A stretch of 64,000 nucleotides of DNA, taken from IMG/VR virus record IMGVR_UViG_3300031857_000029. One strand, written 5' to 3'. This DNA is from a virus. The position numbers and the translations under genes were made by a program. Below the pieces are notes generated by a model, which had not been told where the DNA came from, made no database searches, and saw only the letters and a list, made by a program, of their open reading frames with translations. This document shows positions 2,695-46,342 of this stretch, piece after piece (within the stretch, counting starts at the first letter, position 1; each line of letters starts with the position of its first letter).

Positions 2695-3318
2695 ATGGTT
2701 ACGGAAGAGCAACTTAAAGAACGGTACGAGAAGTTTCTAGAGTTTGTCAAAGCTGACGAACGTTCTGAGCAACTTCTCGCAATGTACGAAGATTTCAGTA
2801 CGGAGTTGACCACCGCTCCGGCTGCAGGTAAAACCTATTTTCATAATGCGTTTCCCGGCGGATATCTTGACCACGTGGTTCGGGTGACGGAAACAGCACT
2901 CCAGCTGGCGTCGGTATATAAGAAGATTGGCGGTGATATAGACTTCACCAAGCAAGAGCTGGTGTTCGCTGCGCTTCATCACGATTTGGGTAAGCTAGGT
3001 AATCCAGTTGAAGGGCCATATTATGTTGACCAAGATTCGGATTGGCACCGTAAACGTGGTGAAATGTACAAGCAGAACGAAAACATTCAATATATGAAGG
3101 TTCCCGACCGCGCCCTCTATCTTCTTCAACACTATGATATCAAGATTACACAGAAGGAATGGATTGGTATCAAGTTGTCCGATGGTATTTATGATGAGGG
3201 AGCAAAGTCGTATCTGATTAACTACGCTCCATATGCGATGAAAACCAACCTTCCTCGTATTATTCACTGGGCTGACCATATGTCTAGTCAATCAGAAAAC
3301 GATAATTCACGATTTTAA
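2695..3318 (+). CDS. HD-domain phosphohydrolase
   Basis: H.AFPGG..DH, ALHHDLGK, IIHWAD motifs. Confidence 0.85.
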   Translation: MVTEEQLKERYEKFLEFVKADERSEQLLAMYEDFSTELTTAPAAGKTYFHNAFPGGYLDHVVRVTETALQLASVYKKIGGDIDFTKQELVFAALHHDLGKLGNPVEGPYYVDQDSDWHRKRGEMYKQNENIQYMKVPDRALYLLQHYDIKITQKEWIGIKLSDGIYDEGAKSYLINYAPYAMKTNLPRIIHWADHMSSQSENDNSRF

Positions 3319-3358
3319 TATTGTTTAATATAACCGTTCAAAATCACTTGGACGGTTA

Positions 3359-3366
3359 TATTTATA
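3359..3366 (+). promoter_or_regulatory. Putative late promoter TATTTATA upstream of hsp20
   Basis: Copy of the motif recurring in intergenic gaps before operons. Confidence 0.55.
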
Positions 3367-3442
3367 TTAGACCTGCGCACAATGCGAGGTCATACCAACG
3401 TGACGCTCAATAGTGAGGTCACATAATATAGGAGGTCATTTT

Positions 3443-3922
3443 ATGACTCATTTAGTATTTCGCCCATTCGGGTCAACGGTTTTGAACAATCGGGATAACT
3501 TCATCAGTACATTCGATAAGATGTTCGATGAATTTGCTCGAAAAGATTTCCCAGAGTTTTTCCAACATTGGGGAGCAGAACCTTTTGGAAAGGCAGCATA
3601 TCCGAAGGTCAATGTAATCTCAAATGACGAGTCTGTGACAATTGAAGCGGAACTCGCTGGTTACAAGAAGAATGAAATTGATATTGAGGTTAAGGAAGGT
3701 GTCTTGACCATTTCGGGTGGCGCATCTCAATTGAACGAGCAAACTGATAAATCCGTTTATCTACTTCGTGAACTCAAGCGTAGTTCGTTCAGTCGTTCAT
3801 TTAAGCTCGGTGACCAATTGGATGCCTCAGCAGTAGATGCACAGTTTGATAATGGGTTATTGACTGTAACAATCCAAAAATTGACAAAGGAACCAGCTAG
3901 TACAAAGGTTACAATTAAGTAA
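3443..3922 (+). CDS. Small heat-shock protein Hsp20 (alpha-crystallin domain)
   Basis: YPKVNV...EAELAG.KK..I.I....GVLTISG...RE...FSRSF.L...A.F.NGLLTVTI; SD GGAGGT favours ATG at 3443. Confidence 0.92.
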   Translation: MTHLVFRPFGSTVLNNRDNFISTFDKMFDEFARKDFPEFFQHWGAEPFGKAAYPKVNVISNDESVTIEAELAGYKKNEIDIEVKEGVLTISGGASQLNEQTDKSVYLLRELKRSSFSRSFKLGDQLDASAVDAQFDNGLLTVTIQKLTKEPASTKVTIK

Positions 3923-3949
3923 TTTCACTTTAACCAACAGGAGGTCTGT

Positions 3950-4006
3950 ATGTGCTGTTGTGTAGATTGTAAGTGTAGTTGCTGTGTAAACCACATAACC
4001 GAGTAA
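3950..4006 (+). CDS. Cys-rich micropeptide MCCCVDCKCSCCVNHITE (18 aa)
   Basis: SD AGGAGGT 4 nt before ATG; 7 Cys in 18 residues. Confidence 0.5.
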   Translation: MCCCVDCKCSCCVNHITE

Positions 4007-4073
4007 CGGGAGGTGATCCACATCGGTTATGTCTGGTATCCAACCTTAATTTAAGGAGATAAACTAGAAATAT

Positions 4074-4117
4074 AACGAGCCGGACTGGTTCTTACTGGTT
4101 CGGTTCGTTTTTCTTTT
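4074..4117 (+). terminator. Intrinsic terminator closing the hsp20 unit
   Basis: aacgagccggactgg / ctggttcggttcgtt stem followed by tttctttt. Confidence 0.7.
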
Positions 4118-4126
4118 GGAGAATAT

Positions 4127-5092
4127 ATGAGTAAATTTTTTAATTTCAAAACACTGGTTTCATTTACTGCGTTAGTAATTGCAGGAAGCGCAGCACTGTT
4201 CTCAGTAACGGGCATTGGTACCTTATTCGCAGGAGCAGCAGTGTCTGCGATGGTGATGGCTGGTGCTTTGGAATTAGGTAAGCTGGTGGGTATCTCATTT
4301 CTTTACCGATATTGGAATGAAATACCAAAAGCATTAAAGAGTTATATGTTGGTGGCAAGCGTTGTGCTTATCGGTATTACATCAGCGGGTATCTATGGAT
4401 ATCTATCGTCTGCATATGCAAAGGTTGCAGCTGACCCATTAAAGATGAACGCAGAAGTGCAAATCTTGAATTCACAAGCACAAACCCTTGACCAAGAAAT
4501 ACAACGAAAGACACAACGATTAGACCAGATTATTGCGCTTCGTGGTCAACAAGAAAATCGTATTGATAATCTTATCAGTAAAAGTACCACGGGTTCTAAT
4601 ACATCCATTCGGTCAGCACAAAATAGTTTAACAGAATTGAATAGAACTGCAAACACATTACAAAAAGAAATCAATCAAGCGTCATCACAACGAGATAGTT
4701 TAAAAGCAAAAAGTTTGACCACAGATGTTGCCATCACAACTAATTCAGATATCGGAACATTCGTATATATTTCTCGCGCAATTGGTGTTCCATTAGATAC
4801 AGTAGTTAAATGGTTTATACTAGTGATTGTGTTAGTATTTGACCCGTTATCAATCTGTTTAATTCTTGCATATAATTTTTTAATGAAACGGGAGCAACCT
4901 GAAGAAAAATCATATGAAATATATGGAGAAAGTATACCTGAAGAACGAAGATTGTCTGACGATTTGATGGATACATTAGAAGGAGATGACCCATTTCCTC
5001 AGTATATGACAAAAGAAGAAACCGAAGATGTATTGGAAAAATTTTGGATGAAAAAAACTATGGCTAAACATAAAGATATTAATATCTTTTAA
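4127..5092 (+). CDS. Membrane protein with long coiled coil
   Basis: Three N-terminal hydrophobic segments, heptad-rich middle, TM with VFDPL motif. Confidence 0.8.
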   Translation: MSKFFNFKTLVSFTALVIAGSAALFSVTGIGTLFAGAAVSAMVMAGALELGKLVGISFLYRYWNEIPKALKSYMLVASVVLIGITSAGIYGYLSSAYAKVAADPLKMNAEVQILNSQAQTLDQEIQRKTQRLDQIIALRGQQENRIDNLISKSTTGSNTSIRSAQNSLTELNRTANTLQKEINQASSQRDSLKAKSLTTDVAITTNSDIGTFVYISRAIGVPLDTVVKWFILVIVLVFDPLSICLILAYNFLMKREQPEEKSYEIYGESIPEERRLSDDLMDTLEGDDPFPQYMTKEETEDVLEKFWMKKTMAKHKDINIF

Positions 5093-45991: not shown

Positions 45992-46210
45992 ATGTACGTT
46001 GAAGTAAAAGGTGATAAACAATCTGATTTAGAACGAGCACTCCAACAGTTCGTTAAGCAAGTCAAAAAAGCAGAATTGATGGAAGATTTAAAGAAGAAAG
46101 AATTCTATTTGAAGAAGTCCAAGAGACTCCAAAAGAAGAGCCAAGACGCCCTCCGCAGAAGAAAGCGTGAAGAGAGTAAGGCGCAGAAGAAGAACAATAA
46201 TACATTTTAA
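45992..46210 (+). CDS. rpsU: Ribosomal protein bS21 homologue
   Basis: V.V......LERAL..F.K.V....L...LKK.EFY.K.S pattern; 72 aa, basic; SD GGAGGT. Confidence 0.85.
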   Translation: MYVEVKGDKQSDLERALQQFVKQVKKAELMEDLKKKEFYLKKSKRLQKKSQDALRRRKREESKAQKKNNNTF

Positions 46211-46342
46211 CTAAAAATTGATGTTTTACAAAAAACAGTAATATATATTTAATAGTACACCTCATTTGGGGTGTGATTTTGTTGTATATAATCTGTTAAT
46301 GACTCATAATAGTCATTTTAATTCTCATAGGAGAGAAACTTT

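Follow-up and report, generated by a model that had tools for sequence, protein, structure and literature searches.

The stretch of DNA analyzed here, which is called the window, is 64 kb (64,000 nucleotides) long and belongs to an uncultured T4-like myovirus with terminase, portal, major head, and sheath genes. On its plus strand, a compact intergenic module separates an hsp20 gene (3443 to 3922; Pfam HSP20, 5e-20; phrog_432), which lies 5' of it, from a gene for a 321-aa membrane plus coiled-coil protein (4118 to 5092 with its ribosome-binding site [RBS] GGAGA at 4118 to 4122; ATG at 4127). The module opens with a micro-ORF of 18 codons, 7 of them for Cys (3950 to 4006; MCCCVDCKCSCCVNHITE, with its ATG at 3950 and a TAA stop at 4004 to 4006). 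Its RBS region (3935 to 3960) carries AGGAGGT at 3939 to 3945, and a 6-bp stem, CAACAG/CTGTTG, encloses both this box and the ATG in its loop. Hairpin 1 (3993 to 4032) follows, with a perfect 10-bp stem (ACATAACCGA at 3993 to 4002 and TCGGTTATGT at 4023 to 4032) and a 20-nt loop (4003 to 4022), and within this loop, 2 nt 3' of the micro-ORF TAA, is GGAGGTGATCCA (4009 to 4020), an extended Shine-Dalgarno (SD) sequence complementary to the 16S rRNA 3' tail GGAUCACCUCC. This sequence, SD-2, is start-less: there is no start codon 4 to 12 nt downstream of it. The ATG of mini-ORF 2 (4029 to 4049; MSGIQP, stop at 4047 to 4049) lies at 4029, within the 3' arm of hairpin 1, and the mini-ORF is overlapped by an anti-SD-like pyrimidine box, AACCTT (4042 to 4047). 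A second SD-type box, SD-3 (TAAGGAGA, 4052 to 4059), has no start codon in the window, and the module closes with an intrinsic terminator (4074 to 4119) made of a 16-bp stem with a 4-nt loop (stem-loop at 4074 to 4109) and a T run.

An earlier, sequence-only reading of this DNA had described the 12-nt complement of the 16S tail, the 10-bp stem, and the AUG at 4029 that opens MSGIQP, and all of these agreed base for base, positions included, with what we found; the TAAGGAG without a start codon (4052 to 4058) and the terminator after it (4074 to 4109) were likewise as described. The RNA of the whole intergenic region folds better than shuffled sequences (z = -3.3). No Rfam 15 family accounts for the module, since a scan of positions 3300 to 4300 gave nothing credible at E values up to 10, and in the window as a whole the gathering score was passed by tmRNA alone.

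The tmRNA lies at 815 to 1151 (Rfam, 114 bits) and was missed by ARAGORN, which reported neither tRNA nor tmRNA in the window. On the plus strand, a gene located between those for the portal and the major head protein encodes a homologue of ribosomal protein bS21 (72 aa, 45992 to 46210) and has a terminator behind it (46256 to 46275); the closest relatives of this homologue among solved bS21 structures are Gram-positive proteins, at an E value of only about 1e-4. Lake phages that carry bS21 are known (PMC9723584). The sequence-only reading had joined the tmRNA, bS21, and the SD element into a translation-takeover system, an idea that found no connection in the tests made, with the two genes 3 kb and 42 kb from the element. 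The large terminase subunit (TerL) is about 51% identical to that of Microcystis phage Mel-JY01 and equally to that of Flavobacterium phage immuto, and this equal distance made TerL undiscriminating as to the host. The similarity of bS21 to solved ribosomes was equally uninformative on this point, and a nucleotide search of cultured phage genomes gave no match.

Conservation of the module in related phages

Relatives were gathered from IMG/VR and metagenome contigs by two flanking-protein searches and one DNA pattern. The module is kept in at least about 35 to 40 sequence variants from uncultured freshwater T4-like phages, and the scan of metagenomes with the DNA pattern added few further members among the matches listed. 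Across these variants, the order is a translated micro-ORF, its stop, the SD, the hairpin, a GGAG box, the terminator, and the next gene, and the surroundings are syntenic in all relatives: an HD-domain gene, hsp20 where it is present, the module, the 321-aa gene, and UvdE. At four loci (L070, L088, L095, and L082), hsp20 is absent and the module directly follows the HD-domain gene. The module thus persists without hsp20 and is not an appendage of it, nor is hsp20 an obligatory partner. The sequence-only reading had staked its proposal on motif and stem being conserved in related phages, and both are.

Hairpin 1 is conserved as a structure. Across 28 variants, 89.5% of its alignment cells are paired, compared to 23 to 41% in controls in which the arms were slid, and compensatory changes occur from A-U to G-C (4 rows) and from C-G to U-A (7 rows), together with G·U intermediates. 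The covariance model that the sequence-only reading had suggested was built and found a single copy at each locus, with no further one in the window. RNAalifold recovered hairpin 1 and the terminator as the only structures. A second hairpin between these two was considered as a candidate; it is predicted in the clade of the window and is unconserved elsewhere.

That reading had also described SD-2 as displayed by hairpin 1, and this was true in part. SD-2 does sit in the 20-nt loop, but the folded loop of the window is predicted to contain a small inner helix, GGA/UCC, which leaves about half of the conserved 10-mer unpaired. In one distant clade, that of L065, the SD is largely paired: the last micro-ORF codons there read AUCAUCU, which is anti-SD-like and pairs with AGGUGAU of the SD, so that the SD is predicted to be masked until the micro-ORF is translated. 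This pairing is located in the loop of L065 and L074 (for example, L065 8785 to 8830, minus strand).

The micro-ORF is equally well kept. Its own 7-nt SD, at -11.5 kcal/mol, is among the strongest real SDs in the window. In every variant that has a micro-ORF, the frame is open, with 16 to 26 codons and 4 to 8 Cys, and its changes in length are multiples of 3. The 5' arm of hairpin 1 consists of its last sense codons. All 38 variants counted with a micro-ORF place its stop -1 to 4 nt from the SD (GGAGG), and in one clade the TAG stop overlaps the SD (TAGGAGG). Since the distance from stop to stem and the length of the loop both vary, it is the adjacency of stop and SD that has been kept. Two outliers depart from this pattern. 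L090 has a 14-codon ORF without Cys, and L072 has neither a micro-ORF nor a real stem, the SD, the 3'-arm sequence, and the terminator standing directly 3' of hsp20. Taken together, these two loci indicate that the SD outlasts the peptide.

The Cys-rich micro-peptides form a family of about 35 phage variants with a recurring CxC spacing (for example, L005:2813-2893 and L057:3473-3538). When the longer ones were searched against Pfam, neither a metallothionein nor any other family was found; they may be metal- or redox-binding peptides or may serve only as a sensing leader. The micro-ORF SD and AUG, in the CAACAG/CUGUUG loop at 3935 to 3960, would constitute a second hairpin-displayed RBS, and a related pairing seems to be retained in the L005 clade.

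Complementarity of SD-2 to the 16S rRNA 3' tail

The 11-mer GGAGGTGATCC (4009 to 4019) is the longest contiguous complement of the 16S tail in the 64-kb window and occurs exactly once in it, compared to 0.02 occurrences expected from shuffled sequences. The match of SD-2 to the 16S tail is therefore not due to chance. Its predicted duplex with the tail has an energy of -24.4 kcal/mol over 11 to 12 contiguous nt, compared to -6 to -12 kcal/mol for the real RBSs in the window, most genes being at about -6 and the strongest at about -12 kcal/mol. For these calculations, the tail was assumed to have its near-universal sequence. Complementarity to the 16S tail extends over 10 to 12 nt across all members and reaches 12 nt (AAGGAGGTGATC) in L072.

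Within SD-2, the 10-mer GGAGGTGATC is near-invariant, and the loop nucleotides on both of its sides vary freely in sequence and length. Only three variants of the 10-mer occur among the loci, GGGGGTGATC, GGAGGTGGTC, and GGAGGTGATT, which carry A3 to G, A8 to G, and C10 to U, respectively. All keep their pairing with GAUCACCUCC through G·U, and these are the 3 of the 30 possible single substitutions that preserve it. The variants were not selected by the DNA pattern, because all of them come from loci found by protein similarity. Placed on the tree of the neighboring gene, the changes in the 10-mer require five events, of which at least four are forced by well-supported branches. By our own calculation, if transitions are favored 2:1, the probability that a random change leaves the pairing intact is about 0.15, which for four such events gives about 5e-4; if only transitions are allowed, the value for four events is about 0.008.

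No complementary partner for the loop was found near the module, and the best sites in the window, at about -18 kcal/mol, lie within coding sequence. Changes confined to wobble pairs, together with the lack of a nearby partner, are the signature of an RNA-RNA helix in which the partner is unable to co-vary, and the near-universal 16S tail fits the description of such a partner. The substitution pattern thus points to real pairing of SD-2 with the 16S 3' tail, and the interaction put forward by the sequence-only reading is consistent with it. The same pattern weighs against the idea that the 10-mer is bound by a ligand other than the ribosome, which we judge very unlikely. Such a ligand could be a nuclease (for example, a RegB-like enzyme that cuts at GGAG) or a protein that binds RNA, encoded by either the phage or its host, another RNA, or, at the level of DNA, a factor at the GATC site. 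Motifs in hairpin loops are typical of protein operators and GATC is a Dam-type site, but substitutions that only ever preserve G·U pairing with GAUCACCUCC indicate RNA-RNA pairing, and no complementary partner was found near the module, the best sites in the window being those of about -18 kcal/mol in coding sequence.

A further stretch of complementarity was observed at 4036 to 4044, about 17 nt past GGAGGTGATCC, where TATCCAACC extends the 16S complement to GGUUGGAU, which forms the 3' strand of helix 45. It is limited to the window's own clade, AACC alone being conserved more widely, and the match to the helix 45 strand is probably a coincidence.

Mini-ORF 2, SD-3, and the terminator

No start codon is conserved at the position from which SD-2 could direct initiation. 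Where an AUG is present in the 3' arm of hairpin 1, it lies 14 to 16 nt after GGAGG (15 nt in the window), a spacing that is too long for normal initiation by established spacing rules. The main clade has this AUG, and eight distant variants have ACG in its place, with compensation in the stem, so that the element cannot have been conserved for the sake of the 6-codon ORF. In the main clade, mini-ORF 2 usually has 6 to 7 codons and stops 4 to 8 nt 5' of SD-3; in the window, the stop comes after the AACC box. L090, a variant without SD-3, differs in that its 3'-arm AUG opens a frame of 25 codons that crosses the terminator. Weak reinitiation may take place at the 3'-arm AUG.

The pyrimidine box is conserved as AAACC(Y)U in alignment A1 and is ACUCUC in one clade. 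It could pair with SD-2 or SD-3, and only weak CCU/AGG pairing is predicted; for the AACCUU box with the loop SD (a pseudoknot) or with the 3' arm, predicted pairing amounts to only 3 to 6 bp and is degenerate. SD-3, with the consensus GGAG(A), lies 43 to 51 nt past SD-2 and 5 to 17 nt 5' of the terminator stem in all variants except the two most divergent, L090 and L072. In some relatives, ATG, TTG, or GTG follows SD-3 by 3 to 4 nt and opens either a frame of 3 codons, which stops at the base of the terminator, or one that runs through the terminator to an ATGA overlap with the start of the next gene. Frames of the latter type occur in L005, L015, L024, L057, L065, L070, L074, and L095. In the distant clade, there is no SD before the ATG of the 321-aa gene, and since the clade with crossing frames mostly lacks this SD, translational coupling through the terminator is suggested. 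The window's own clade has lost the start codon after SD-3. A split RBS, in which the terminator hairpin would bring SD-3 up to the next ATG, was considered and rejected, the resulting spacings of 18 to 24 nt being too long.

The stem of the terminator shows covariation in the relatives, with G-C changed to A-U in 7 rows and to C-G in 2 rows, among other changes. Only 14 nt lie between its T run and the RBS and start of the 321-aa gene, and no promoter-like site was found between the terminator and the ATG of this gene, nor any conserved -10 or -35 element in the spacer. Elsewhere in the window, no intergenic terminator is preceded by an SD box. The 321-aa gene is syntenic in all relatives, and no family was found for its protein.

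Several variations were observed in this part of the locus. In L019 and L039 (IMGVR_UViG_3300008110_005133), a deletion has removed the terminator and approximately 29 codons from the beginning of the 321-aa gene and joins the spacer after the GGAGA box to the interior of the gene; this deletion may be natural or may have arisen in the assembly. L029, L033, and L123 carry an extra gene of about 0.9 kb directly after the terminator and before the 321-aa gene, with no SD at its ATG. Homologues of the 321-aa gene are found a few nucleotides past an intrinsic terminator in Microcystis phage Mel-JY01 (L107 1440 to 1492), where the RBS is GGAGA, and in Flavobacterium phage immuto (L108 1370 to 1420), where there is no SD; the SD hairpin is absent before both.

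Proposed ribosome docking, rival explanations, and known systems

The reading that we prefer, and hold only tentatively, is that SD-2 is a cis-acting ribosome-docking site that is coupled to termination on the micro-ORF and feeds ribosomes towards the terminator. In it, SD-2 would pair over 10 to 12 nt with the 16S rRNA 3' tail of a ribosome to which it offers no start codon. A ribosome terminating on the micro-ORF would already have melted the stem and, because the 5' arm of hairpin 1 is the end of the micro-ORF and the SD adjoins the stop, it would be the likeliest partner to be caught by SD-2; alternatively, a free 30S subunit could bind the loop while the micro-ORF is idle. Once docked, the ribosome would be kept on an otherwise untranslated 100 nt ahead of a strong terminator and could be handed on through mini-ORF 2, SD-3, or both, the latter being 5 to 17 nt before the terminator stem. 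At SD-3, it would lie over the 5' arm of the terminator and let transcription run on into the downstream gene, which has no promoter, so that read-through would depend on ongoing translation of the leader, much as in attenuation of the pyrBI type, in which the ribosome is itself the antiterminator. What is inferred in this reading is which ribosomal species is bound, how it is handed on, and what this does to termination.

Several features favor docking of this kind, among them the conservation of the element at syntenic loci, the compensatory changes in the stem, the wobble-preserving changes in the 10-mer, and the fixed distance of stop and SD. The AUCAUCU pairing predicted in the L065 clade would allow translation of the micro-ORF to unmask the SD, the terminator and the following RBS are only 14 nt apart with no promoter-like site, and the presence of an SD box upstream of the terminator is unique among the intergenic terminators of the window. 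The distant clade has no SD for the gene and instead has frames that cross the terminator to an ATGA overlap, and in L090 it is the frame of the 3'-arm AUG that crosses it. Other features argue against it. SD-2 is 55 to 65 nt from the terminator, which is too far for direct masking, and in the window's clade no start codon follows SD-3 and the stem, of 14 to 16 bp, is 17 nt away, so that occlusion would be marginal. Frames that cross the terminator are confined to about one-third to one-half of the lineages, folding predictions support no alternative antiterminator pairing, L072 keeps the SD and the terminator without a micro-ORF or real stem, and L090 lacks SD-3. The sequence-only reading had offered three options, namely, a 30S sponge, a device for termination-reinitiation or ribosome holding, and an mRNA stabilizer, and the second fits best, given that stop and SD are -1 to 4 nt apart in all 38 variants with a micro-ORF and that the last codons of this ORF make up the 5' arm.

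Stabilization of the mRNA, as by a STAB-SD, is a possibility that we consider doubtful. A 30S subunit on SD-2, and another on SD-3, would shield the RNA from nucleases, either as a 5' roadblock for downstream read-through transcripts or as a coat over the 3' untranslated region (UTR) of hsp20 and the micro-ORF. SD-2 is strong, start-less, and 16S complementary like the STAB-SD of cry3A (PMC4113751), and it precedes the next ATG by 118 nt, compared to about 125 nt in cry3A. The spacing of 43 to 51 nt between SD-2 and SD-3 is approximately the footprint of one subunit, so that two docked subunits and the terminator would cover the whole UTR, and the persistence of the element in L072 without a micro-ORF is also as expected of a stabilizer. 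Against this, a strong terminator stands between the element and the gene to be protected, and a stabilizer needs neither the adjacency of stop and SD nor the overlap of the stem with the end of the ORF. The sponge is less likely still. As a trans-acting decoy, the terminated 3' fragment would accumulate, occupy the anti-SD of host 30S subunits, and shift translation; the predicted duplex of -24.4 kcal/mol is very stable, the terminator would yield a discrete stable RNA, small rreB mRNAs with a long SD co-sediment with 30S subunits (PMC5711450), and the phage has bS21 and tmRNA genes. However, the element is present in one copy per genome and has no promoter of its own, and its SD falls within the footprint of ribosomes terminating on the strongly translated micro-ORF, which would mask it. 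The titration of tens of thousands of subunits would moreover need an RNA of matching abundance, and blocking the anti-SD would also harm the phage, the genes of which mostly use SDs. We regard this explanation as distinctly improbable.

Little more probable is a classical leader-peptide attenuator that senses Cys, in which stalling at Cys codons would alter folding and hence termination or the use of the downstream RBS, SD-2 being incidental or the RBS of a vestigial coupled ORF. The density of 4 to 8 Cys in 16 to 26 codons is like that of the his and phe leaders, the leader stops at a hairpin, a terminator precedes the next gene, and polycysteine small ORFs act as attenuators in mycobacteria (bioRxiv 10.1101/834739). 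The antiterminator that such a mechanism needs finds no backing in folding: the duplex between the 3' arm and the flank of the terminator is at -7.5 kcal/mol, compared to -6.5 +/- 2.2 kcal/mol for shuffled sequences, and most of 21 variants show no advantage over shuffled sequences. The last Cys codon is at least 8 nt before the stem, L090 lacks Cys and L072 lacks the ORF, the downstream gene is not one of Cys metabolism, and the invariant 10-mer with its wobble-only changes is left unexplained. The docking reading could also be extended so that the module is a sensor of ribosomes built by the phage, and this we think unlikely as well. The start-less SD would read the ribosomes that arrive, or are available, with a free 16S tail and would switch the terminator and the membrane gene; possible triggers would be remodeling by the phage bS21 or a host attack on tRNA-Cys or on translation, and a trans effect on the host anti-SD pool could be an added layer.

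If docking does control read-through or stability, it would add a mechanism in which the ribosome is the ligand to phage gene regulation and would provide a small, portable part that couples the fate of transcription to translation. The lake phages that have the element are abundant and encode tRNAs, tmRNA, and bS21 as well, so that the element bears on how such phages manage host translation. To our knowledge, few cases are known of a start-less SD that holds a ribosome (STAB-SD and rreB), and none is from a phage or has this layout. The STAB-SD of cry3A was reportedly described by Agaisse and Lereclus in 1996. In Bacillus thuringiensis, this 9-nt sequence lies at the processed 5' end of the cry3A 5' UTR and blocks RNase J1 (PMC4113751). 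Like it, the module has a 16S-complementary SD that lies about 120 nt before the next gene, may bind 30S subunits, and probably does not initiate translation; unlike it, the SD of the module is 10 to 12 nt long, sits in a hairpin right after the stop of a small ORF, and has both a second SD box and a strong terminator behind it. The module thus shares the 16S complementarity of STAB-SDs and is a candidate for this kind.

Small mRNAs of the rreB/rreR type, in alpha-proteobacteria, have a 16- to 17-nt SD before a small ORF of 14 to 18 aa and are found on 30S subunits, and their long SD hampers translation rather than promoting it (PMC5711450). The module resembles them in the association of a tiny ORF with an abnormally long SD, but differs in both of their defining traits, since its SD is 10 to 12 nt long, not at least 16, and lies after the small ORF; it is also phage borne and has no conserved start. 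In the Flavobacteriales, an extended SD of rpsU is read by ribosomes that lack bS21, which provides for autoregulation of bS21 (PMC9976891, PMC7797042). There, too, the SD-anti-SD helix runs into the GAUC of the 16S tail, and the phage encodes a bS21, so that the theme is shared. The rpsU SD, however, drives initiation of rpsU in hosts in which the anti-SD is normally hidden, whereas the element described here has no start codon, belongs to a phage whose genes use ordinary SDs, and is 42 kb from the phage bS21 gene.

The likeness to attenuators (pyrBI, trp/his, and the polycysteine small ORFs) lies in the short, codon-biased leader ORF, the hairpin at its end, the terminator, the promoter-less gene, and the reading frame that several relatives have across the terminator. 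A Cys-rich leader ORF followed by an intrinsic terminator, as in the trp/his type, was found wherever there is a micro-ORF, with the exception of L090, which has no Cys. The mutually exclusive 2:3 antiterminator of that type was not found in the module, no other antiterminator is supported, start-less SDs are not part of known attenuators, and the gene downstream has no known link to cysteine. What distinguishes the module from all of these systems is its composition, in that it provides a compact, conserved, natural example in which a stop, a hairpin, an extended SD, a second SD box, and a terminator follow one another in fixed order.
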